Virus record (IMG/VR): IMGVR_UViG_2923302340_000004
Coordinates: 1-10,228 of that record
From: a virus
Taxonomy: Duplodnaviria; Heunggongvirae; Uroviricota; Caudoviricetes
Length of the DNA: 10,228 nucleotides
Direction: 5' to 3' (one strand)
Below are positions 1 to 10,228 of the stretch, in pieces (the stretch's first letter is position 1; every line of letters starts with the position of its first letter). Both the position numbers and the translations under genes were made by a program. The notes beneath the pieces were generated by a model. The model worked only from the letters and a program-made list of their open reading frames with translations. It had not been told where the DNA came from and ran no database searches.

Positions 1-1428
1 GTGAAATTATTCAGATTCTCTAAAGTAAAAATTGCAGAACTGCCAACGCCGGAACATGGACAGGTCGAATATGGTGATACGGAGGTTAACGGGCTGCGTG
101 TCCGTGTAGGTTCGTCTGGTGTGAAAAGTTTCTGCATTTCCCGTAAGCGTAACGGAAAATTTATTCGTGCAACGCTGGGGCGTTTTCCTGATCTGAGCGT
201 GGATAATGCCAGGGCTAAAGCTATGGAACTCCTTGGCGAAGTCGCCACAACGGGGATAAATCCGAACATAGCAAAGCGCACTAACAACAAGGCCATGATA
301 ACGCTGAGTGAGGCGATTGACGCCTACGTAAAAAATCGTGGCCACCGCCTGAAACCCGCCACAGAAAAACAGTACCGCAGCATATTACAGAATTATTCCG
401 GTGACTGGATGGCCCATACCCTCGCCAGTATTTCCCGCGAACGGGTGGAACAACGGCATAAGGCCATCACTGATGGGGCTGTATGGTTCGGTGCTGATAA
501 AACCACGTTACGGGCTGGGGTTGGTACAGGAAGCAAGGCACAGGCCGATTTATGGGCGCGTGCGCTACGTGCTGTGTGTCGGTTTGCGCATGATCATTAC
601 CGTGATGATGCGGGTAATACTCTTTTACCGGATCCGCCGACTCTGGTACTGAGCACCAAGCGCCAGTGGCACGGAACGGTAAGAAAAACGGAACGTATCC
701 GCCTGCATGATTTTCCCCGCTGGTTTGCTGCTGTAGCTGCTGTGCGCGACCAGGGCGAACAGGAAAGGGATGATATAGCGGTGACGGTATGCGATGCCGT
801 GGAAATGGCGCTTTTTACCGGACTGAGGAAATCAGAAATTTTTGGCCTTACGTGGGATCGAGTGAATATGGGCGGTCGTTTTTTCTGGATAGACACCACG
901 AAAAACGGGGATCCGCTCGAATTACCGATTACTGATACGTTGCGGGAAATGTTCCACCGCCGACTGAAAATAAAAAACGCTGATGATGTTCTGCTGTTTC
1001 CTGGTGTGAAGGGAGTGATTCAGGAAACACGGCACATCATAGACCGGATAAGCGCGGCTACTGTTCCAGAGTCGAACGATGAAATGCTCTCCCCTGTACC
1101 ATTCAAATGGCACGATGCACGCCGGACGTTCGGAACGGTTGCCGAACTGGTGGGCGTGGGCAATTACATCCTCAAGCGCCTGATGAATCACCGTACTATG
1201 CGAAGTGCTGACGTAACGCAGGGGTATTTACATTTTGGTGCTGATGAACTGCTGGAGCCAGCGTCACGGATAGAACGGGCAATTCTGGAACATGCCGGGC
1301 TGGTGGAGAGTAAAAAATCTATCGATGCGCAATTGCTTTCCGCACTGGAGAGTATGAGTGACAGTGAGAAACGCGCATTACTATTTAGTATCGTTAATTC
1401 AAATGGTGATTTGAATGTCAGAAAATAA
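1..1428 (+). CDS. int: Tyrosine site-specific integrase, P4-type (N-terminal arm-binding domain plus catalytic core)
   Basis: 475-aa ORF. N-terminus (KIAELPTPEHGQVEYGDTEVNGLRVRVGSSGVKSFCISRKRNGKFIRATLG...INP) matches the arm-type DNA-binding domain pattern of P4-family integrases. C-terminal core has the H-x-x-R box (WHDARRTFGT) and a terminal Tyr motif (DVTQGYLHF). Starts with GTG at the window edge, so the true start could be at or just upstream of position 1. Has a ~50-aa C-terminal extension relative to typical members. Confidence 0.9.
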   Translation: MKLFRFSKVKIAELPTPEHGQVEYGDTEVNGLRVRVGSSGVKSFCISRKRNGKFIRATLGRFPDLSVDNARAKAMELLGEVATTGINPNIAKRTNNKAMITLSEAIDAYVKNRGHRLKPATEKQYRSILQNYSGDWMAHTLASISRERVEQRHKAITDGAVWFGADKTTLRAGVGTGSKAQADLWARALRAVCRFAHDHYRDDAGNTLLPDPPTLVLSTKRQWHGTVRKTERIRLHDFPRWFAAVAAVRDQGEQERDDIAVTVCDAVEMALFTGLRKSEIFGLTWDRVNMGGRFFWIDTTKNGDPLELPITDTLREMFHRRLKIKNADDVLLFPGVKGVIQETRHIIDRISAATVPESNDEMLSPVPFKWHDARRTFGTVAELVGVGNYILKRLMNHRTMRSADVTQGYLHFGADELLEPASRIERAILEHAGLVESKKSIDAQLLSALESMSDSEKRALLFSIVNSNGDLNVRK

Positions 1429-2101
1429 AATCATTGCTGCAATAGAATTTGACCATAATGATGCGAAGGATATGAATACTATTGCAGATTATATTAGAGA
1501 TGAACTGGCGTCTTCTTTTGTAAAAAAAACGATATGCGATATGGCAAATATCACACCATCTAAAATGTCTCTGGAGGAGAGATTATCATTATCGTCAGAG
1601 ATAGAAAATAAGGATTTAAAGGTTAATATTTCTGTATGTGCCGGGTATGGAGATGATTTTGATAAAAAATTTAATAGTGCATATTCAGAATTCAATGATA
1701 TTTTGAAAGCTGCCATTATATTTGAAGTTCTTGGTTTCAACAGACTTGCAGATCAGTTACGTGAAAGATATGCGATTTTAGTGTCGGAGAATTTATTAAA
1801 ATCAGTACGTGATATAGCTAATGTAAAGAAAATTATCAGTGAAGACCGTAGTAAAGCAAAGAAAGGAAAAACAAACAGGCATAAATCAACAGCGTTATCT
1901 ATAGCTTGTAACACTTGGAAAAAATACCCTAATGCCAGTTTACCCGGGCTATCCGCAGAGATATACGCGCATTTACGCAATAAATGGAATGATGTCCCTG
2001 TAGTTGGGACTATAGAGAGATGGCTTAAGGAGTCGGGGATGAATCCAAAATCCCCGCAAAAAAACAGGGATTTTAAGTTAGTTATTGGAGACAAAGAATA
2101 A
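1415..2101 (+). CDS. Hypothetical protein, AT-rich accessory (cargo) gene between int and alpA
   Basis: 228-aa ORF. ATG at 1415 is preceded by GGTGA and overlaps the integrase stop by 14 nt. The gene is visibly AT-rich (roughly one-third GC by eye) against ~50% GC flanks. No motif I can confidently assign; C-terminal third is basic (KKGKTNRHK...) and could be nucleic-acid binding. Confidence 0.6.
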   Translation: MSENKIIAAIEFDHNDAKDMNTIADYIRDELASSFVKKTICDMANITPSKMSLEERLSLSSEIENKDLKVNISVCAGYGDDFDKKFNSAYSEFNDILKAAIIFEVLGFNRLADQLRERYAILVSENLLKSVRDIANVKKIISEDRSKAKKGKTNRHKSTALSIACNTWKKYPNASLPGLSAEIYAHLRNKWNDVPVVGTIERWLKESGMNPKSPQKNRDFKLVIGDKE

Positions 2102-2233
2102 ATCCAGTTTTATCCTCTGTAATCCAGATTTCAGTCATGTAAACCAGATATGCGATTTTGTATCTGGTTTTCCTGTCTTCAAGACTTCCCCATCGCTAAA
2201 TAACGTATACCTGTTCTTAATCAGAAGTATACG
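2101..2233 (+). promoter_or_regulatory. Putative alpA promoter/operator region with direct repeats and a perfect 9-bp inverted repeat
   Basis: Direct repeats AATCCAG(A)TTT at 2101-2111 and 2121-2131. Perfect inverted repeat AACCAGATA (2142-2150) - 10 nt - TATCTGGTT (2161-2169), immediately upstream of the alpA start. Confidence 0.35.
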
Positions 2234-2242
2234 GTGATACTC

Positions 2243-2431
2243 ATGCATTTAGAAAAGATGACCCGCAAAGAAGCTGCCGAGCATTTGGGGGTAAGTGTCC
2301 AGACTCTTGCTAACTGGGCGTGTACTGGCAAGGTAAAAATCCCTTTTCATAAGCTGGGGCGCAAAGTGCTGTATATGCGCACTGATCTCGATGCTTATCT
2401 TGCATCCACTCGCAGAACGCAGACGGTGTAA
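2243..2431 (+). CDS. alpA: AlpA-family / excisionase-like helix-turn-helix DNA-binding protein
   Basis: Short protein with the typical HTH signature MTRKEAAEHLGVSVQTLANWACTGKVKIPFHKLGRKVLYMRTDLDAYL (compare AlpA/HTH_17 pattern: hydrophobic-LGVS-x-T-hydrophobic-x-x-W ... G-R-x-hydrophobic-x-hydrophobic-x-x-x-L-x-x-W/Y-L). Located directly after int and a cargo gene, as in CP4-57-type islands. Start ambiguous: GTG 2234, ATG 2243 (GGTGA upstream) or ATG 2258. Confidence 0.8.
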   Translation: MHLEKMTRKEAAEHLGVSVQTLANWACTGKVKIPFHKLGRKVLYMRTDLDAYLASTRRTQTV

Positions 2432-2541
2432 GGGGGAGTGATGGCACATAAAACAAAGGCGACCGCAGAGGGCCGCCAGTGGCATAACACTAAACTTGAG
2501 CATATCCAGAATACCAGGTTGTTGGCTGGTGGGCAATGCAA

Positions 2542-2715
2542 TCAGTCTGGTTCAGTTCGTTGCCATACCTGCAATGGGCGCGTTTCCCTGTACTCTTTAA
2601 GGAATTGCTCAAGGGCAAAAGCACATGGCGCGAATCTTTCTGATTCATGCTCTATCTTTCTGCGCCGTCTTTTCCGTGCCGGTGATAATGTTTTGGTCAA
2701 TTCTTTATCGGTCAT
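2542..2715 (-). CDS. Small basic hypothetical protein (uncertain; may be non-coding)
   Basis: Minus-strand ORF downstream of the RHH gene, reading MTDKELTKTLSPARKRRRRKIEHESERFAPCAFALEQFLKEYRETRPLQVWQRTEPD. AGGA lies 8 nt upstream of the internal ATG; the alternative ATG at 2730 has no SD. Many rare Arg codons (AGA, CGG, AGG). A same-region + strand frame is also open, so the coding strand is not settled. Confidence 0.3.
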   Translation of the reverse strand: MTDKELTKTLSPARKRRRRKIEHESERFAPCAFALEQFLKEYRETRPLQVWQRTEPD

Positions 2716-2772
2716 TGTGTTGTCCTGCATAGCAATGCGCCGTAGTTACTCACACCACGGCGCTGGTGATGG

Positions 2773-2952
2773 TTACTCCTGCTCTTTGGCCTTGCGGCGC
2801 TGGCGGCGTTTGATCTCGCCTTTAACGGCAGTAACTATAAATTGCGCCTTGCTTTCACCTTCATCTAAATTTTTTTCTAAGTCTGCAACAACATCATGCG
2901 GGAATCTGGCATTTAACTGTTGCGACTTATTATTTGTTGAACCTGTTGCCAT
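2773..2952 (-). CDS. Ribbon-helix-helix (Arc/MetJ/CopG-like) small DNA-binding protein, putative transcriptional repressor
   Basis: 59-aa product MATGSTNNKSQQLNARFPHDVVADLEKNLDEGESKAQFIVTAVKGEIKRRQRRKAKEQE. Layout is beta-strand (QQLNARFP), helix A, G-x-S turn (GES), helix B, basic tail, which is the classical RHH pattern. ATG at 2952-2950 is preceded by a strong SD (GAGAGGA) 7 nt upstream. The longer ORF-track version (to 3126) has an implausible N-terminal extension covering the promoter. Confidence 0.6.
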   Translation of the reverse strand: MATGSTNNKSQQLNARFPHDVVADLEKNLDEGESKAQFIVTAVKGEIKRRQRRKAKEQE

Positions 2953-3142
2953 TACTGAATCCTCTCTAAGTTGGTGCGATTCAGTATACACAAAAAAAAT
3001 TTCAGAGAAAGGCTTGAAGTGCGATTCACTTTCTGATAGGTTAAAAACGAATGGTGCGATGCACCAAGCAACAACGCCCCGCAGTGGTGGCACACATGCA
3101 GGGCGTCTAACCACCAACGATAGCAACAGTATCGAGGCAGCT
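2953..3142. promoter_or_regulatory. Divergent control region between the RHH gene (-) and the icd-like gene (+), with repeated GTGCGAT operator-like motifs
   Basis: GGTGCGATTCAG at 2973-2984, AGTGCGATTCAC at 3018-3029, and the palindromic GGTGCGATGCACC at 3053-3065. A -10-like TATACT (minus strand, plus coordinates 2983-2988) overlaps the first repeat, just upstream of the RHH SD. Confidence 0.4.
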
Positions 3143-3346
3143 ATGAGAAATTATACCAGACACCCGCAAGGGCGGGACTCGTACAACCTGAATAAATACA
3201 TCTGGCGTTTTATCGCCCTGAGCACGGCACAACCGCGCGTGATTACCATTGAGGCCACCAGCGAACAGGAAGCGCGTCAGCAATCTCCGGCTGGCTGCGT
3301 GATGGTATTCGCCGCCCGTATTCGTCAGGGGGTGTGCCATGCCTGA
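3143..3346 (+). CDS. Icd-like small protein (host cell division inhibitor Icd-like family), tentative
   Basis: 67-aa product MRNYTRHPQGRDSYNLNKYIWRFIALSTAQPRVITIEATSEQEARQQSPAGCVMVFAARIRQGVCHA. The YIW-F-A ... IEA-SE-EAR ... FAAR pattern resembles the short Icd-like proteins annotated in P4-like elements. GAGG lies 7 nt upstream of ATG 3143. The upstream in-frame extension of the ORF track (from 2438) looks non-coding. Confidence 0.55.
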   Translation: MRNYTRHPQGRDSYNLNKYIWRFIALSTAQPRVITIEATSEQEARQQSPAGCVMVFAARIRQGVCHA

Positions 3347-3659
3347 TATGTCAAATTACCAGTACCTGATTAATCCGCATTTTAACTGTGAGCATGATAT
3401 TGCTAAAAAGGTTTATTCCGCTGCTGATGAGGCTACTGACAATATATCAATGGCTGTTGCGTCAATTGGTAGCCTGATGTGGCATGCGTCAGAAAATGAG
3501 GACTATGACGAAAAGGCCATGCGCATTGATATGGGTAATATCGGTTTGTTACTGGCAATGCTTGGGCGGTTTGATATTTCGTTACGGTGCACCATTGAAA
3601 ATGCCACAGATGCATTAAATGCCATAAAGAAAGCGAATACTGATTCAAATCGGGGATAA
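3339..3659 (+). CDS. Hypothetical protein
   Basis: 106-aa ORF. Its ATG overlaps the icd-like stop (ATGCCTGA), suggesting translational coupling. A G-rich SD-like stretch lies upstream. Acidic protein with no recognisable motif. Confidence 0.55.
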   Translation: MPDMSNYQYLINPHFNCEHDIAKKVYSAADEATDNISMAVASIGSLMWHASENEDYDEKAMRIDMGNIGLLLAMLGRFDISLRCTIENATDALNAIKKANTDSNRG

Positions 3660-3665
3660 ATAATC

Positions 3666-3965
3666 ATGAGAACATATTTATCTGGCTTGACTGCCAGCGG
3701 TTATGCACACCCCAAAATTATCCCCGGCGCTATTTATCTGGATAAGAACGGTAACAGAGTAACGGTAAAAGAACTGATGTTTGACCGTGTGTATTTTATT
3801 CGTGATGGCTATTCATTTCATAGTTCGCTGAACGTGGAGATCTTTATTAGCAGATTCCGGCGGGAAATCCCGACTTCCAGAAATAACCATGTGTCACGTG
3901 TGGATGTGGATAAAAAACTGCAGGAACTGAAAAACATGATTGCCGCGTGGAGAGAGCCGAAATGA
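3666..3965 (+). CDS. Hypothetical protein (small, precedes the primase)
   Basis: 99-aa ORF. GGGGA SD lies 9 nt upstream of ATG 3666. Its stop TGA (3963-3965) overlaps the primase ATG (3962) as ATGA. No motif confidently assigned. Confidence 0.55.
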   Translation: MRTYLSGLTASGYAHPKIIPGAIYLDKNGNRVTVKELMFDRVYFIRDGYSFHSSLNVEIFISRFRREIPTSRNNHVSRVDVDKKLQELKNMIAAWREPK

Positions 3966-6085
3966 AAAAAGCGCCAAATTTAAAACACCAGCCGCGTGAC
4001 AAAATGACGGAAGTCATCATTTTTGCGGGTAGTGATGCGTGGGCACATGCGAAGCAGTGGCAGGAACAGGACGGGCGACTGGCTGGCGATAACGTGCCTC
4101 CTGTCTGGCTTGGAGAGCAACAACTTGCCGAACTGGACAACCTGCAAATCGTACCGGACGGACGCTATCGCGTGCGTCTCTATCAGGCGGGGTTATTGCG
4201 TCCGGGGCTTGTTAATACCATCGGGCAGAAACTGGCAGCGGCAGGTGTCAGGGATGCTGATTATTACCCTGAAGGAATGCACAGCCAGAAACGGGAGAAC
4301 TGGCGCGAATATCTGGAACGTGAACGGGCAGAGCAGGCGGAAAAGAAAAAGGTAGTTGAACTGCCTGTAAAGAAAAAAGAGCCATGCTATCAGGATGATG
4401 AATTAAAGCCCCGCGTTGAAAGTCGCGTCGATGGTGTTTTCTGGGTAACGCCCAAAGTGGATAAGCAGTCAGGCGAAATTATCCGGCCTGAGACGTGGTT
4501 ATGTTCTCCGCTTGAACTACTGGGAACGGGGACGATCGGTAAAGAGCATTACCGCGTGATGCGCTGGAAAAAATTAGCAAACCATGAAGTCATCACAATG
4601 GCGATCCCGTGTGGTGGCATTGGCGACCGTGACGGCTGGCGGTTGCTTAAAGATCACGGGCTGAACGTGACAACAAACGGCAAATACAGGGCTATCCTGG
4701 CTGACTGGATGCAGTTAAGCGGAAGCCATGAGGAATGGCAGCTAAGCACAACAACGGGCTGGCATTTTGGCGCGTATATCATGCCGGACGGCTCAATCAT
4801 TGGTGATTCTGAAAAACCGATCCTGTTTACCGGAAAAAGTGCCGCTGTTAATGGCTATTCGGTTGCGGGTACGGCGGAGGGCTGGCGCGACTGCGTGGCG
4901 CGGCTGGCTGGTGGCAATCCGTCCATGATGCTGGGTGTTGCCACGTCACTGGCAGCACCTTTGATTGGCCTTGTTGGTGCTGACGGCTTCGGGGTACATC
5001 TTTTCGAACAGTCATCGGCAGGGAAAACCACCACGCAGAACATCGCATCCAGTTTATGGGGAGAGCCGGACGCACAACGGCTGACCTGGTACGGCACAGC
5101 GTTAGGTATCGCTAACGAGGCAGAGGCGCACAACGACGGGCTGTTACCCCTGGATGAAATAGGCCAGGCCGGAAACGCGCGGGAGGTGTCCACGTCAGCC
5201 TATACGTTGTTTAACGGTTCCGGGAAATTACAGGGGGCGAAGGACGGCGGCAACCGGGAGATAAAACACTGGCGCACGGTGGCAATCAGCACCGGAGAAA
5301 TGGACGTTGAGACATTCCTCAAAACGGAGGGGATAAAAGTCAAAGCGGGGCAGCTTGTCCGCCTGCTTAACGTTCCGATGGAAAAAGCCACGCACTTTCA
5401 CGAATACAGCACCGGAAAGGCGCACGCAGACGCGTTAAAGGATGCCTGGACAGAAAATCACGGGGCAGCGGGTCGTGAGTGGGTTAAATGGCTGGCAGGC
5501 CACCAGCAGGAGGCAAAGGATACGGTAAGGGAATGCCGCGAACGGTGGCGCAACCTGATACCGGAGAGCTACGGCGAGCAGGTCCACCGCGTGGGTGAGC
5601 GTTTCGCCATACTGGAGGCCGCGCTTGTGCTTTCCGGTCATGTAACTGGCTGGGCCGCGCAGGAATGCCGGGACGCAATACAGCATAACTTTAATGCCTG
5701 GGTGAAGGAGTTCGGCACGGGTAACAGGGAATTTAAACAGATGGTTGAACAGGCTGAGGCGTTTTTGTCGTCGTTCGGGTTCAGTCGATACCTTCCTTAC
5801 CCAAACAGTGATGAACGTGATTTACCGATTAAAGACCTTGCCGGATACAGAAAGGGGAGTATCAGAAATGAAGATGATGAGTTCCGTTTTTACACGTTTC
5901 CTCATGTGTTTGAGGGGGAGATCGCACAGGGATTTAACCCGTCCCACTTTGCCCGCGCGTTGAGTGCTGCCGGAATGCTGGAAGCGGGTAACGATCGCCG
6001 TTACAAGAAAAAGGCTCTCGGCAAAATTGGGGGGAAGCAGCATGTTTTTTACGTGCTGATGTTCCAGCCTGAGGCAGAAGATTAA
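3962..6085 (+). CDS. Replication protein: primase/helicase-like with a central P-loop NTPase domain (PICI Pri-Rep / P4 alpha-like role)
   Basis: ~708-aa ORF. ATG 3962 is preceded by GAGAG and overlaps the upstream stop; the ORF-track start is a GTG at 3947. Walker A-like FEQSSAGKTTTQ and Walker B-like GLLPLDEIGQ lie in the middle of the protein. Its size and position immediately upstream of an iteron array are typical of satellite/plasmid primase-helicases (DUF927-like). The family name is from memory. Confidence 0.8.
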   Translation: MKKAPNLKHQPRDKMTEVIIFAGSDAWAHAKQWQEQDGRLAGDNVPPVWLGEQQLAELDNLQIVPDGRYRVRLYQAGLLRPGLVNTIGQKLAAAGVRDADYYPEGMHSQKRENWREYLERERAEQAEKKKVVELPVKKKEPCYQDDELKPRVESRVDGVFWVTPKVDKQSGEIIRPETWLCSPLELLGTGTIGKEHYRVMRWKKLANHEVITMAIPCGGIGDRDGWRLLKDHGLNVTTNGKYRAILADWMQLSGSHEEWQLSTTTGWHFGAYIMPDGSIIGDSEKPILFTGKSAAVNGYSVAGTAEGWRDCVARLAGGNPSMMLGVATSLAAPLIGLVGADGFGVHLFEQSSAGKTTTQNIASSLWGEPDAQRLTWYGTALGIANEAEAHNDGLLPLDEIGQAGNAREVSTSAYTLFNGSGKLQGAKDGGNREIKHWRTVAISTGEMDVETFLKTEGIKVKAGQLVRLLNVPMEKATHFHEYSTGKAHADALKDAWTENHGAAGREWVKWLAGHQQEAKDTVRECRERWRNLIPESYGEQVHRVGERFAILEAALVLSGHVTGWAAQECRDAIQHNFNAWVKEFGTGNREFKQMVEQAEAFLSSFGFSRYLPYPNSDERDLPIKDLAGYRKGSIRNEDDEFRFYTFPHVFEGEIAQGFNPSHFARALSAAGMLEAGNDRRYKKKALGKIGGKQHVFYVLMFQPEAED

Positions 6086-6116
6086 CCCCCTGTGTGAGGT
6101 GAAAAGTTGCGTGTTA

Positions 6117-6424
6117 TGCGGGTTACTATGTGTATAAGTGCATTAACTGCATGAATAAAAAGGAAATCAATAACCCGCACGTAACCCGCAAAACGGCAGT
6201 TATAACCCGCAAAAGTGCGATTATAACCCGCAGATGAATAACAGGAAGTGACAGCAAACAGCCACGCGTAACCCGCAGAAAAAACCCCGTTTGCGGGTTA
6301 TTTTGAGCATTTTGCGGGTTACGCCACGGCTAAACAGTAAACAGTTAATTTTGTAATGTATTGATATTAAGGAATAAAAAATACTTAGCAAGCGAAGATA
6401 ACCCGCTAACCCGCATAACCCGCA
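6117..6424. repeat. Iteron array, putative origin of replication of the element
   Basis: At least 11 copies of the 9-bp motif TAACCCGCA in both orientations. Forward copies at 6171, 6182, 6203, 6224, 6269, 6407 and 6416, plus variant TAACCCGCT at 6399. Reverse copies TGCGGGTTA at 6117, 6292 and 6313. Several spacings are 11 or 21 bp (helical phasing). An AT-rich stretch (about 6330-6395) and TATATATATA (about 6433-6442) lie within and beside the array. Located directly 3' of the primase gene. Confidence 0.7.
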
Positions 6425-6463
6425 CTGTTTTGTATATATATACGAAAAATTGAGATCTGAACT

Positions 6464-6706
6464 ATGAAGGCAAACCGCAAACAACCACACTACCGCGCTA
6501 TTGACCTTACAGAGCACTGGCTGAGAGTGGCGATAAAAATCATCGACCGAAACACGGGGGAAGGATATGCAAAAGCACATCCCGAACTGATAAGCGCATT
6601 CATGACAACGGCAGCTGCAAACTTTGCCACGTTGACAGAACGGGAGATTGCCGAAGCGGAACAGGTGACAACCATCAACGTTAAAACCGGAGAGCAGATA
6701 GCATGA
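6464..6706 (+). CDS. Hypothetical protein
   Basis: 80-aa ORF immediately after the iteron region. Its stop overlaps the SSB-like start (ATGA). Weak SD; function unknown. Confidence 0.45.
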   Translation: MKANRKQPHYRAIDLTEHWLRVAIKIIDRNTGEGYAKAHPELISAFMTTAAANFATLTEREIAEAEQVTTINVKTGEQIA

Positions 6707-7125
6707 CAGCACAGATAGCGGCTTACGGACGGCTGGTGGCTGACCCGCAGTTAAAGACCACCAGCAAGGGTACACAAATGGCGATGGCTAGTATGGCGGT
6801 CCCCCTTCCGTGCAGCCAGGCAGATGACGGAACGGCGATGATGTGGTTATCCGTCCTGGCGTTTGGCAGACAGGCCGACGCACTGGCAAAACACCACAAA
6901 GGCGAACTGGTGAGCGTGGCGGGTAACATGCAGGTAAGCCAGTGGACAGGCCAGAACGGCGAAACGCGGCAGGGCTGGCAGGTTATCGCAGACAGCGTGA
7001 TCAGTGCGCGAACAGCGCGACCGGGCGGCAAAAAAGGCCAGCAGGGGCAGGCCACTGACGCATTGAACAGGGCAAAACAACAGTCGGGGAATGATGATCC
7101 GTACGGCGATAATATACCGTTTTAA
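6703..7125 (+). CDS. ssb: Single-stranded DNA-binding protein (SSB-like, short form)
   Basis: 140 aa. OB-fold region aligns by eye to E. coli SSB: GRLVADPQLK...MAMASMAV against GNLGQDPEVR...VANITLAT, W..V.AFG..A..LAKHHKGELVSVAGNMQVSQWTGQNGETRQ against [43 protein letters not shown]. Gly/Gln-rich linker and acidic C-terminal tail DDPYGDNIPF (SSB ends in DDDIPF). GGAGAG SD lies 8 nt upstream. Confidence 0.75.
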   Translation: MTAQIAAYGRLVADPQLKTTSKGTQMAMASMAVPLPCSQADDGTAMMWLSVLAFGRQADALAKHHKGELVSVAGNMQVSQWTGQNGETRQGWQVIADSVISARTARPGGKKGQQGQATDALNRAKQQSGNDDPYGDNIPF

Positions 7126-7142
7126 ATTCTGCAAACAAAAAG

Positions 7143-7171
7143 ATGCCGGAAAAAAATAGATTTTCCGGCAT
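7143..7171. terminator. Perfect 11-bp stem-loop (ATGCCGGAAAA / TTTTCCGGCAT, 7-nt loop) after ssb; possible terminator or RNA structure
   Basis: Inverted repeat at 7143-7153 and 7161-7171, 18 nt after the ssb stop. There is no U-tract 3' of the stem on the + strand (the T-run is inside the stem); a T-rich run follows on the - strand. The terminator call is therefore weak. Confidence 0.3.
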
Positions 7172-7336
7172 GCTACATAAATCCCGACCAAAGGAAGTAA
7201 ATACATTAACACGAATTATCAGCACTGAAGTTGTTACGGCATATTTTATACAACATTGCACTTGGTTGCATGTATTTGCATAGCAGACATCGGTAATAGA
7301 ATATATTCACAATTATTTGTAATGAATGTAAAGAGG

Positions 7337-8383
7337 ATGAGTATGGTTGATTTATATTCGCCTACACAGCTTGTGCAGGTGGCTAATGCTGAAGATGTGC
7401 AAAAAAAATTAAATGCGTTGTTTACCAGTTTGTTTTTCACTCGCTCGGTAATGTTTGAATCGAGAGACATTATTCTTGATACGATCGACGATCCAAATAT
7501 CCCGATCGCGGCGTTTTGCTCTCCTATGGTGGGCAGTAAAGTTTCACGAGATGAGGGATACGAATCAAAAACAATTCGTCCAGGTTATATGAAGCCGAAA
7601 AGCAGCATTGATCCAAATAAGTTAGCTGTGCGCCCTGCTGGTGTGTCACCTGAGCAATACAATGCTTTTGGGGCGCGTAATATTAAAGTTAAACAGGCGA
7701 TTGTAAATCAGGCTAAAGCTATTCGTGCACGTATTGAATGGCTTGCTGTTCAGGCAATCACAACGGGGAAAAATATCATTGAGGGCGATGGTATTGAACG
7801 TTATGAGCTGGACTGGAATATAAAACCACAAAATATCATCACTCAGTCTGGCGGTACTGAGTGGTCAGGTAAGGATAAAGAAACTTTTGATCCAAATGAT
7901 GATATTGAGAGCTACGCAGAATTTAGTGAGGGCGTCACTAATATCATCATTATGGGTGGTAATGTATGGAAGAAATACCGTTCATTCAGAGCGATAAAAG
8001 AGGCTTTGGATACCCGTCGTGGCTCTAATTCCGAACTGGAAACGGCCCTTAAAGACCTTGGTGATTCGGTGAGTTTTAAAGGGTATATGGGCGATGTTGC
8101 GATTGTTGTTTACAGCGGGCGTTATACCGACGAGGACGGAACTGAAAAATATTTCCTTGATCCTGATTTGATGGTGCTTGGCAATACGGCTCTTCAGGGG
8201 ATTGTCGCTTATGGCGGTATTCAGGATCCGGAGCTAATCCGGATGGGGCTGACTAAAGCCGAACTTGCACCGAAAAACTATATTGTGCCTGGTGATCCGG
8301 CTATTGAATATGTGCAGACACATTCAGCACCACAGCCAATACCGGCCCGCATCAATCGTTTTGTTACCGTTCGCATTGGCTAA
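7337..8383 (+). CDS. Major capsid protein, lambda gpE family
   Basis: Extensive collinear similarity to lambda gpE as I recall it: MSM start, then NIITQSGGTEWSGKDKETFDPNDDIESYA, LDTRRGSNSELETALKDLG, YMGDVAIVVYSG, MVLGNT, GDPAIEYVQTHSAP against lambda NITQSGGTEWSKRDKSTYDPTDDIEAYA, LDTRRGSNSELETAVKDLG, MYGDVAIVVYSG, MVLGNT, GDPAREFTMIQSAP. SD AAGAGGA lies at 7331-7337; the start is ATG 7337 or, with better spacing, ATG 7343. The ORF-track start at 7256 is an artefactual extension. Confidence 0.9.
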   Translation: MSMVDLYSPTQLVQVANAEDVQKKLNALFTSLFFTRSVMFESRDIILDTIDDPNIPIAAFCSPMVGSKVSRDEGYESKTIRPGYMKPKSSIDPNKLAVRPAGVSPEQYNAFGARNIKVKQAIVNQAKAIRARIEWLAVQAITTGKNIIEGDGIERYELDWNIKPQNIITQSGGTEWSGKDKETFDPNDDIESYAEFSEGVTNIIIMGGNVWKKYRSFRAIKEALDTRRGSNSELETALKDLGDSVSFKGYMGDVAIVVYSGRYTDEDGTEKYFLDPDLMVLGNTALQGIVAYGGIQDPELIRMGLTKAELAPKNYIVPGDPAIEYVQTHSAPQPIPARINRFVTVRIG

Positions 8384-8392
8384 GGGGGAGCA

Positions 8393-8734
8393 ATGGCTAC
8401 TCATTACACTGAACTCATGTCTGGCACTGAAGCACTGGTTACTACGCTGGGGATATTTTCAGCCAATAAAGGGGTAATACCTGCGTTTACGCCACTGATG
8501 CAGGAAGATGCAACTGGTGCGCTAGTGGTATGGGATGGAACGAGCGCAGGCAAAGCGGTTTATGTTTCCGCTGTACAAATCGACACAGCGAAAAAAACAC
8601 AGGCACAGGTTTATAAGACAGGTGTTTTAAATGTTGATGCTCTGAACTGGCCTGAGTCTGTAAAAGAACTGTCGGCAAAGGTTGCCGCGTTTGTTGGCTC
8701 AGGTATTTCTGTTCAGCCGCTGGCTCGTGTGTAA
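8393..8734 (+). CDS. Head decoration protein, lambda gpD family
   Basis: 113 aa. PAFTPLMQEDATGALVVWDGTSAGKAVYVSAVQ...YKTGVLNVDALNWPE...AAFVGSGISVQ aligns by eye with lambda gpD [32 protein letters not shown]...YKSGTFRYEDVLWPE...TAFAGTAISIV. Strong SD TAAGGGGGAG is coupled to the capsid gene stop. Confidence 0.8.
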   Translation: MATHYTELMSGTEALVTTLGIFSANKGVIPAFTPLMQEDATGALVVWDGTSAGKAVYVSAVQIDTAKKTQAQVYKTGVLNVDALNWPESVKELSAKVAAFVGSGISVQPLARV

Positions 8735-8745
8735 AGGGGGATACA

Positions 8746-9129
8746 ATGCAGAATCATTACAATGACCTTAAGCCAATTGCCGAAATGATGTATCCGGATC
8801 CAGCAGTAGAGGAATTAAAGGCTATTGCTGACAAAATGCGTTTAAGTGAACGCCTTGTTGATATGAATCAGGTGATGGAACTTACTACCCTTAGCCGTCG
8901 CACATTGCTAAACCTTGAGGCTCGCGGAGAGTTCCCCGAACGCGTACAGGTTACGGAAGGGCGTAAGGCCTGGTATTTAAGTGAAGTGATCGACTGGATA
9001 AACAATATTCCTCGAGCTTCTGAATATTGCCGCGTACCTGTCCCAAAAAAGCCAGATGCGGCGCTATGCCTCAAGATTGAGCGTGTACGCCGCAATGCAT
9101 GGGATGGTCGCTATAAGCTGATTGGTTGA
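8746..9129 (+). CDS. Second AlpA-like / excisionase-type HTH protein with N- and C-terminal extensions
   Basis: 127 aa. Central segment VDMNQVMELTTLSRRTLLNLEARGEFPERVQVTEGRKAWYLSEVIDWINN matches the AlpA/HTH_17 signature (TGLSRSTIYRL...G.FP.P...G.R...W...E...W). SD TAAAGGGGGA is coupled to the gpD-like stop. Lies immediately upstream of the cos site. Confidence 0.65.
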   Translation: MQNHYNDLKPIAEMMYPDPAVEELKAIADKMRLSERLVDMNQVMELTTLSRRTLLNLEARGEFPERVQVTEGRKAWYLSEVIDWINNIPRASEYCRVPVPKKPDAALCLKIERVRRNAWDGRYKLIG

Positions 9130-9182
9130 TGAAATTAGGGCCCGTTCTGGCTGGCGGGTCCTTTCCGGCGATCCGGTAGGCT

Positions 9183-9230
9183 ACGGGGCGGCGACCTTGC
9201 GGATTTTCGCTATTTATGAGCCTTTTCGGG
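9183..9230. other. cos site: lambda-type cosN (12-nt cohesive-end sequence GGGCGGCGACCT at 9186-9197) with flanking sequence, followed by a divergent cosB-like region
   Basis: ACGGGGCGGCGACCTTGCGGATTTTCGCTATTTATGAGCCTTTTCGGG is near-identical over ~35 nt to the lambda left end GGGCGGCGACCTCGCGGGTTTTCGCTATTTATGAAAATTTTCCGG (from memory). It sits ~135-150 nt upstream of the Nu1-like gene, as in lambda. Sequence beyond ~9220 diverges from lambda cosB. Confidence 0.75.
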
Positions 9231-9330
9231 TTGGTGGTGGTGGTTTTGTTTTTCGCTCTATCTCTATGAATAAAAAGGGAAAGATAACACCAACACACCA
9301 ACCTGAAACCTTAACTAAGTGGGGATATTG

Positions 9331-9873
9331 ATGAAATCGCACCTGATGAACAAAAAAACTATGGCGCAAAGCTGCCGCGTAAGTGCGACAGCGTTCGACA
9401 AGTGGGGAGTAACTCCCGTTGAGCGTAAAGGCCGTGAGGCGTTTTATGATGTTGCTAGCGTGATAGACAATAGGGTTAACAATGCAATTAACCAGCTTAC
9501 AAACGACAAAGGCGAGATTGATGATGATGAACTTTTACGCGTAAGAATCAGATTAATGACGGCCCAGGCGGAAGCGCAGGAACTTAAAAACGAGCGCGAA
9601 CGCGGCGAGGTGATTGATACAAAGTTTTGCATCTACGCGATTTCAAAACTAGCGAGTCAGATTTCATCAATCATGGACAGCCTCCCGCTCACAATGCAAA
9701 GGCGCTTTCCCGATATAAAGCCGTATATGCTGGATGAACTAAAAAGGGAAATAGCCAAAGCATGTAACGCATGTGCAAGACTTGACGAAAACCTGCCACA
9801 GATACTGGCTGATTACCTGATGGAAACTACCGGAAACGCGCCTGAGAAGTTGCTAGAGAACAAAGGCGAGTAA
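9331..9873 (+). CDS. Terminase small subunit, lambda Nu1 family (satellite TerS / packaging-redirection candidate)
   Basis: RLMTAQAEAQELKNERERGEVIDTKFCIYAISKLASQISSIMDSLPLTMQRRFPDI matches lambda Nu1 RLTRAQADAQELKNARDSAEVVETAFCTFVLSRIAGEIASILDGLPLSVQRRFPEL. The N-terminus MNKKTMAQ... corresponds to the Nu1 wHTH start MEVNKKQLAD. GGGGA SD precedes ATG 9331; alternative ATG at 9346; the ORF-track start is GTG 9319. Confidence 0.85.
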   Translation: MKSHLMNKKTMAQSCRVSATAFDKWGVTPVERKGREAFYDVASVIDNRVNNAINQLTNDKGEIDDDELLRVRIRLMTAQAEAQELKNERERGEVIDTKFCIYAISKLASQISSIMDSLPLTMQRRFPDIKPYMLDELKREIAKACNACARLDENLPQILADYLMETTGNAPEKLLENKGE

Positions 9874-9946
9874 CCGCCGCCCCGTAACGGGCCATAATTC
9901 CAGGAAGGACCCGACGACACCAGGCTATCAGAACGATGAGGGCACA

Positions 9947-10228
9947 ATGACTGAAGCCGAACTACTGGGATTAATCCGCCGCGTCGTCGGAATCAGCCAG
10001 CAGCATGACGAACAGGCCACACAGCCGGACAGCGTGACCGCTGAAAATTATGTGCGTGTTGTTGCTGAGGTGATGCGCCGTGATGGTATTGAGCTTAACG
10101 GCGTGGATATGCGCAACATACGAACAAGAGTCCTTGAGTTGCTGGCATACCGTCGCCGTTCTCAACAACGGAGGGAGAGCGCGAAAAATACTTACCAGTG
10201 GAAGAAGCCGGAACGGTTGCGGCGGTAG
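9947..10228 (+). CDS. Hypothetical small basic protein downstream of TerS
   Basis: 93-aa ORF with GAGGG SD 6 nt upstream of ATG 9947; stop TAG at 10226-10228 is the last codon of the window. Arg-rich C-terminus. No similarity I can recognise to the lambda gpA N-terminus. Confidence 0.45.
   Translation: MTEAELLGLIRRVVGISQQHDEQATQPDSVTAENYVRVVAEVMRRDGIELNGVDMRNIRTRVLELLAYRRRSQQRRESAKNTYQWKKPERLRR

Follow-up and report, generated by a model that had tools for sequence, protein, structure and literature searches.

What kind of gene sits between the integrase gene and alpA in a phage satellite of Escherichia coli? The satellite studied here is IMG/VR virus record IMGVR_UViG_2923302340_000004, of which positions 1 to 10,228 were analyzed (10,228 nucleotides [nt], the window). 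It is a satellite of about 11 kb of the phage-inducible chromosomal island (PICI) type, and the gene in question, called X here, had been described in an initial annotation as an AT-rich orphan inserted into a variable slot, a candidate cargo gene with a defense, anti-helper, or regulatory function. We find that X is probably a modular, DNA-binding component of the control region of the satellite and not randomly inserted cargo. Its C-terminal half is conserved together with a set of repeats in front of alpA, and its N-terminal half turns over between islands. The three genes of the module are as follows.

Positions 1 to 1428, + strand: int, encoding a tyrosine integrase of 475 amino acids (Arm-DNA-bind_3 and Phage_integrase in homologues), the first gene of the int-X-alpA module.
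Positions 1415 to 2101, + strand: gene X, encoding a 228-amino-acid protein of an unnamed family (taken from the list of open reading frames [ORFs]; RefSeq hypothetical protein WP_016231469.1).
Positions 2243 to 2431, + strand: alpA, encoding a 62-amino-acid protein of the HTH_17 type with the recognition helix QTLANWA.

X is a genuine gene. Its ATG is preceded, at 5 nt, by the Shine-Dalgarno sequence GGTGA (positions 1405 to 1409), and its start overlaps the stop codon of int (positions 1426 to 1428) by 14 nt in another frame, as the initial annotation had noticed; X is probably translationally coupled to int. When two E. coli alleles of X were compared, the ratio of nonsynonymous to synonymous substitution rates (dN/dS) was 0.24 in the N-terminal half, and positive selection on the N-terminal domain was not seen within this one type. 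The C-terminal half showed zero amino acid changes. In a comparison of the window with the E. coli allele of locus L028, int and the N-terminal half of X had synonymous distances (dS) of about 0.10 to 0.11. Over positions 1829 to 2431 of the same comparison, the C-terminal half of X had 1 difference in 270 nt and alpA had 0 in 186 nt. Compared with its flanks, the regulatory core, composed of the C-terminal half of X and alpA, is much younger or under more constraint, a pattern suggestive of recombination or a recent sweep.

The AT richness that had drawn attention to X was confirmed by computation. The G+C (GC) content of X is 34.4% (0.40, 0.34, and 0.29 at the first, second, and third codon positions), compared with 48.1% for the window and 0.41 to 0.58 for each of the other genes, whose third-position values range from 0.39 to 0.65. 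The lowest-GC stretch of 687 bp in the window (33.9%) begins at position 1307, overlaps mostly with X, and lies about 2.6 standard deviations under the window mean. However, X has a GC content of 30 to 38% in 13 of 13 loci measured across genera, next to int genes of 41 to 55%. X therefore does deviate from its neighbors, but since low GC is common to the whole family, it is not evidence of a recent insertion in this island.

The locus itself is constant. The order integrase, X, a spacer of 119 to 171 bp, and alpA was found in all 29 loci examined, and in every locus retrieved X starts within a tyrosine integrase gene, 4 to 14 nt ahead of its stop codon; the integrase usually has 472 to 490 amino acids (the exception, in L018, has 420). 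These loci span E. coli, Salmonella, Klebsiella/Enterobacter, Citrobacter-type, and Pectobacterium genomes as well as metagenomic contigs, with family members at E = 1e-4 to 1e-18. A search of species-representative genomes gave 3 loci, and the others came from exact-protein look-ups and IMG/VR. The modules downstream vary by locus. Replication modules are of the DUF927, AAA_25, or D5 type, and packaging modules consist of a λ E/D-like capsid and decoration pair, an HK97 capsid with protease and portal (the type of the capsid-forming PICIs, cf-PICIs), or a ClpP-capsid fusion.

Among 5,426 complete E. coli genomes, the integrase of the window (at least 80% of the query covered, 95 to 100% identity) was present in 85, the C-terminal half of this X with the spacer in 58, and the N-terminal cassette of this X in 54. 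In MS20653, an example from the remaining approximately 27 integrase-bearing genomes, the slot is filled by a divergent 238-amino-acid member of the X family (locus L016; hhalign probability 100%, E = 7.5e-44). All slot occupants examined in E. coli for this integrase clade belong to the X family: the protein of the window, a 266-amino-acid variant in L013, and the divergent protein of L016. The prototype island EcCICFT073 has a different integrase of 409 amino acids and a different AlpA type, and its int-alpA gap consists of 365 bp of noncoding DNA with no gene. Just after int of EcCICFT073 (L027, positions 5190 to 5250), there are GAACAAC-type repeats at a spacing of about 10 bp, which are possibly binding sites for AlpA or Int. 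X is thus constant within its int-X-alpA module, though not universal in Gram-negative PICIs. The slot that had been called variable always holds an X-family gene (29/29), with the C-terminal half, the spacer, and alpA conserved, and what turns over in it is the N-terminal cassette of X. The initial annotation had itself held that conserved presence in all related elements would argue for a core function, and the conserved presence of X in related elements points to such a function.

Alignments of the family divide X into two parts. The C-terminal 90 residues or so are strongly conserved and basic (isoelectric point [pI] of 10), residues from about 91 to 137 are weakly conserved, and the first 90 or so are unrelated between groups. 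The C-terminal consensus is composed of a basic arm, KKxISEDRSKAKKGKTNRH, followed by ALKIAxDTWxKYPNASLAGL…TIxxWLKxSGLNP…KNRxFKLVI. When 140 full-length members were compared, their C-terminal domains formed one BLAST-connected component, whereas their N-terminal regions formed 32, at least 6 of which are joined to the same C-domain subtype. The window and a sister E. coli island (L013) share 95% DNA identity over positions 1 to 1403 and 1829 to 2448, and nothing aligns over positions 1404 to 1828. Judging from these alignments, the exchangeable unit is half a gene, an N-terminal cassette that is swapped between islands. The parts of X are as follows.

Positions 1404 to 1828, + strand: swappable cassette, comprising the Shine-Dalgarno sequence and codons 1 to 138 of X; 31% GC, an acidic product (pI 4.6 to 5.1), and no DNA similarity to L013.
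Positions 1685 to 1825, + strand: helical hairpin, X residues 91 to 137, weakly conserved, with the motif LxKAxxIxExxGxxxLA; most distant homologues start to align at this point.
Positions 1826 to 1882, + strand: basic arm, X residues 138 to 156, KKIISEDRSKAKKGKTNRH, pI 10.7.
Positions 1883 to 2089, + strand: winged-helix-like domain of X, conserved, with helices at residues 157 to 170, 176 to 190, and 197 to 206, a beta wing reaching to about residue 225, and the invariant motifs TW..YP.AS and WLK.

The C-terminal domain is winged-helix-like according to the structural model. The cassette also takes in the last 8 or so codons of int. As a separate observation, the integrases associated with X are usually about 65 amino acids longer at the C terminus than the 409-amino-acid integrase of EcCICFT073, and this extension ends within the swapped cassette.

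The spacer between X and alpA is conserved from E. coli to Pectobacterium, about as well as its coding flanks. It contains four sites with a CCAG/CTGG core at positions 2104, 2124, 2144, and 2164, in an exact 20-bp phase, and the array begins at the stop codon of X.

Positions 2101 to 2110, + strand: distal site 1, AATCCAGTTT, with CCAG at 2104; it overlaps the last base of the X stop codon.
Positions 2121 to 2130, + strand: distal site 2, AATCCAGATT, with CCAG at 2124.
Positions 2142 to 2150, + strand: distal site 3, AACCAGATA, left arm of an inverted repeat, at offset +43 from the X stop codon.
Positions 2161 to 2169, − strand: distal site 4, TATCTGGTT (reverse complement AACCAGATA), right arm of the inverted repeat, at offset +62.

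The candidate operator is a perfect inverted repeat, AACCAGATA-N10-TATCTGGTT, together with the half-sites upstream of it. In 28.7 kb of sequence, exact AACCAGATA was found only at the two places in the spacer and at none near attL or attR. When the loci were grouped by the C-domain subtype of X, each subtype had its own distal motif.

Subtype A (KGKTNRH), in the window, L013, L002 to L005, and L009: AATCyAG twice, plus AACCAGATA/TATCTGGTT.
Subtype B (KPRN), in L016, L018, and L020: ATAGCTG type; L016 has four direct repeats at exactly 21 bp, and the 14-mer ATCCCGCATAGCTG is common to L018 and L020.
Subtype C (GGKGRTN), in L017 and L023: TAAGTACyTAA at a phase of about 20 bp.
Subtype D (SGP[KR]N), in L022 and L024: CACAGCGCGTT…AACGCGCTGTG.

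The distal motif tracks the C-domain subtype of X and not the type of AlpA, and the architecture of the sites is kept. L023 has the AlpA type that is usual with subtype A, yet it carries the subtype C motif. The PF05930-type AlpA of L018 is only 18% identical to the AlpA of L020, yet both loci have the subtype B motif. Over 105 locus pairs, similarity of the distal spacer correlated with X C-domain identity at ρ = 0.55 (Mantel p ≈ 0.0008) and with AlpA identity at ρ = 0.37, whereas for the proximal spacer the values were 0.29 with X C-domain identity and 0.68 with AlpA identity (p ≈ 0.0002). In nine of nine pairs with a similar AlpA but a dissimilar X, essentially no distal 7-mers were held in common.

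The rule linking motif and subtype was tested independently, and confirmed, on 14 IMG/VR loci from outside the set used to derive the motifs. Both arms of the inverted repeat were present in 12 of the 13 subtype A loci at the same offsets from the X stop codon (+43 to +46 and +62 to +65), and the sole subtype C locus had the subtype C motif. In the 13th subtype A locus, L036 (IMG/VR UViG_2833601699_000002), the two arms had changed together and read AACTAGTTA/TAACTAGTT, with their positions kept (43 to 71 nt after the X stop). This concerted change is what an operator that binds a dimer would show.

Closer to alpA, the spacer holds a second element.

Positions 2204 to 2239, + strand: proximal element, CGTATACC...GTATACGGTGATAC, over the Shine-Dalgarno sequence of alpA; TATCACC...ACGGTGATA in most loci (12 others at the equivalent position).

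This element accompanies all AlpA proteins of the QTLANWA type; in L018, where AlpA is of the PF05930 type, CCCGTAAC…GTTACGGG stands in its place. The element may be an autoregulatory site for AlpA. RNAalifold gave no consensus pairs for an RNA hairpin over the alpA Shine-Dalgarno sequence. A scan for sigma-70 promoters found no site on the + strand in the spacer. If the best-guess −10 element (TAAAGT/TAACGT) is taken, the distal sites lie at roughly −48 to −108, and such a position, roughly 45 to 110 bp upstream of a weak, activator-type promoter, fits either a class I-type activator or an anti-activator.

The initial annotation recognized no motif in X and suggested that its function may be undescribed; in database searches the lack of a known motif held up, and X belongs to an undescribed orphan family. 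X had no match in Pfam, PHROGs, PADLOC, NCBIfam, or the protein sequences of the PDB (phmmer). A Pfam scan of 75 family members found nothing, a profile of the family found nothing significant in the PDB by hmmsearch, and a search of the viral structures of BFVD gave nothing below E = 1. PADLOC yielded 0 families for X at E values up to 10, and no effector, enzymatic, or toxic domain was detectable in X. X matched neither PF05930 nor PF12728 (AlpA/HTH_17), the domain that is present in the neighboring gene, and it matched no Rep family. A tblastn search for relatives of X in phage and plasmid records found none. The best library matches, HTH_70 (E of 0.82) and poxvirus A49 (E of 0.16), were taken as noise. 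A P-loop reading of AKKGKT was likewise rejected, since the Walker A spacing is not satisfied (S146 occupies a position that demands A or G) and the modeled segment forms a helix. A word-indexed search retrieved 86 clusters of X homologues, all from Enterobacterales and all unnamed, and exhaustive searching with HMMER across 1.84 billion representative proteins retrieved only 88 X clusters (E ≤ 1e-3), all of 190 to 285 amino acids. The family is small, unnamed, and enterobacterial.

We propose that X is a two-part regulator within the int-X-alpA control module of an enterobacterial PICI/cf-PICI clade, a mechanism that, taken in full and as read from sequence comparisons, we place just short of an even chance. 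The basic winged-helix C-terminal domain would bind the phased sites as a dimer or oligomer, and through those sites X would control the alpA promoter and hence the activator by which excision, replication, and packaging are set off. Putative DNA binding by X is suggested indirectly by the pI of 10 and by the way in which the adjacent repeats covary with C-domain subtype, and AlpA is regarded as the master activator of the satellite cycle by analogy with its relatives. The variable N-terminal domain would confer specificity by receiving a helper-phage protein, and alpA would consequently fire only while a suitable helper replicates. The direction of control could be either of two: X might repress alpA until the helper protein removes it, or it might activate alpA once the helper protein binds. 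Helper dependence of alpA has been established for related PICIs. A bolder version is possible but distinctly less likely. In it, X would be the missing helper-sensing master regulator of a large Gram-negative PICI/cf-PICI clade, each N-terminal cassette would bind a different helper protein and thereby set the inducing phages, and the winged helix would gate alpA via subtype-specific operators, as an Stl-like module evolved independently on a new fold.

Several points limit this regulatory proposal. Part of the covariation could come from linkage alone, given that the distal spacer is next to X. L025 and L022/L024 have a CGCGTT core in common and similar AlpA proteins but different X C-terminal domains. 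The concerted change of both arms in L036 has no obvious counterpart in the putative recognition helix of X; the wing, helix 1, or the basic arm may instead hold the determinant of specificity. The fold-search scores of X are modest, and the best matches are protein-binding winged helices. Finally, EcCICFT073 is helper inducible without X.

The island around the module is a Gram-negative PICI. An identical copy is integrated between nfeF and tRNA-Ile/mug in E. coli CFSAN018748, where the annotated gene order is as follows.

Gene order in CFSAN018748: int, X, the HTH_17/AlpA gene, small genes, a DUF927 primase gene, ssb, major capsid, head decoration, a helix-turn-helix (HTH) gene, and terS.

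The gene set is the same as that of EcCICFT073, and the island has the features by which Gram-negative PICIs are defined: int, alpA, primase/replication genes with an origin (ori), few packaging genes, a size of about 10 to 15 kb, unidirectional genes, and an att site of its own. Downstream of the DUF927 primase gene, an AT-rich gap (positions 6107 to 6424) holds a field of iterons, in which TAACCCGCA/TGCGGGTTA occurs at least 10 times, with copies in either orientation; this gap is most likely the satellite replication origin. The iteron motif TAACCCGCA is unrelated to the repeats of the X-alpA spacer. A mechanically listed ORF of 302 amino acids on the + strand (positions 2438 to 3346) is probably spurious; RefSeq has small minus-strand genes there (hypothetical, YlcI/YnfO family) and an Icd-like gene. 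No Rfam family matched anywhere in the window. In E. coli A33 (L029, NZ_CP028742.1, positions 4233888 to 4278000), a tandem array of at least five satellite copies lies beside tRNA-Ile/mug, with frameshift flags on many coding sequences; the array is either a true head-to-tail multimer or an artifact of long-read assembly.

Other functions for X can be weighed against this background. The initial annotation suggested accessory cargo, either anti-phage or helper-interfering. Read in this way, the N-terminal domain would recognize phage proteins and the C-terminal domain would be an effector or docking part. A hypervariable N-terminal domain and low GC do resemble arms-race cargo, and EcCICFT073 lacks a gene in the int-alpA slot. 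Immune systems can reportedly be carried at the 5′ ends of PICIs, according to a later paper that cites Fillol-Salom et al. 2022 (Cell), a study reported to cover immune regions at both ends (5′ and 3′) of PICIs. The orphan status of X and its setting in a PICI-type satellite also stand. However, X has no PADLOC match and no enzymatic or toxic domain, and its model was assessed in this connection as that of a small, all-helical protein. Every examined island with an integrase of this clade carries a member of the family, as do 29 of 29 loci overall, and the C-terminal domain is conserved together with its cognate cis-element inside the island. The low GC is family-wide, and the family has no relatives in phage or plasmid records. 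We therefore consider cargo unlikely; of the three functions first suggested, defense found no match, and regulation is the one we retain. About equally unlikely is an immunity-type repressor, a variant of our regulatory proposal in which X would act in inter-satellite competition or quiescence without sensing the helper directly, and the N-terminal domain would be a fast-drifting oligomerization module. The C-domain subtypes with their matching operators resemble heteroimmune repressor/operator sets, and selection on the N-terminal domain within a type is purifying and not positive. Drift, however, would hardly produce 32 unrelated N-terminal regions on one C-domain family or sharp cassette edges between islands that are 95% identical, and the established helper dependence of alpA in related PICIs also speaks against it.

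A recombination accessory or directionality factor, co-translated with int and acting at att or on Int, is more doubtful still. The start of X overlaps the int stop in all loci, X is strictly tied to the clade of integrases of about 472 to 490 amino acids, and the winged-helix fold predicted for X is also that of Xis-type factors. Yet in L001 the exact motif was found only in the spacer between X and alpA, at a distance of 2.2 kb from attL, with no copy in the attL or attR region, and on this ground an att-site role was rejected. The role of excisionase or recombination directionality factor is already filled by AlpA (HTH_17), and a hypervariable N-terminal domain is unexpected in a factor that serves one conserved integrase. 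Least probable by far is that the phased repeats are replication iterons and X a winged-helix initiator. Four sites at a 20- to 21-bp phase next to a gene for a winged-helix-like protein resemble iteron/Rep systems, but the island has its own primase-helicase, X has a single winged-helix-like domain and no Rep family match, and an iteron/Rep role was rejected in view of the separate iteron field in the canonical position after pri.

The regulatory proposal has its closest parallel in Stl of SaPIs (pathogenicity islands found in Staphylococcus aureus) and Rpr of Gram-positive PICIs. In both cases the gene adjoins int at the regulatory end of the satellite, and a modular protein combines a conserved part of DNA-binding type with another that is highly variable; in the model proposed here, by analogy, the variable part of X would bind a helper-phage protein and couple induction to the helper. 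X nevertheless has no sequence or Pfam relationship to Stl or Rpr, and its C-terminal winged-helix-like domain contrasts with their N-terminal Xre/cI-type HTH, so that the domain order is reversed. In all loci X points in the same direction as int and alpA, whereas the Gram-positive genes are divergent from str/xis, and X would act on the promoter of an activator, AlpA. X resembles the AlpA/HTH_17 regulators of Gram-negative PICIs and P4-like elements in being a small, DNA-binding-type protein of the integration zone with a winged-helix-type fold, and X probably acts in the same intergenic region. X differs from them in having no HTH_17 or Phage_AlpA match, in being three times larger, and in having an extra variable domain; its repeats lie in the distal spacer, and the element that follows AlpA type lies in the proximal spacer.

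With OmpR/PhoB-type and other winged-helix regulators, X has in common a winged-helix-like domain that carries a basic arm, and short sites arrayed at a phase of about 20 to 21 bp upstream of a weak promoter. Like the 5′-end immune genes of PICIs and the defense hotspots of P4 and P2, X is proximal to int and AT rich, and part of its sequence turns over fast. Unlike them, it is not optional among islands with this type of integrase, its turnover is confined to one half, and it has no match to a known defense system or effector domain. The Bro-zone genes resemble X in domain swapping between satellites, in probable DNA interaction, and in the regulatory role suggested for some members, but X has no Bro-N or KilA-N domain, and its place is the integration zone, upstream of alpA, whereas theirs is the Bro zone downstream.

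To our knowledge, helper sensing in Gram-negative PICIs has been an open question since 2018: AlpA is the known activator, and we know of neither a repressor or sensor nor a phage inducer that has been identified. We found no mention of a gene between int and alpA in the papers that we read on PICIs, cf-PICIs, and helper-embedded PICIs (HE-PICIs). The X family is a concrete and tractable candidate for the helper sensor of one clade that includes cf-PICIs, and it offers a defined protein, a candidate operator, natural classes of operator and C-terminal domain, and at least 32 natural N-terminal cassettes as baits for helper-encoded inducers. Should X instead prove to be a defense factor, it would still represent an unnamed family with an unusual exchange of half-gene cassettes. 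By analogy with the Gram-positive satellites, the logic of a satellite master regulator would here be carried by a new protein family. If the proposal is true, it would account for helper range, make induction specificity predictable from sequence, and demonstrate a convergent origin of Stl-type logic.

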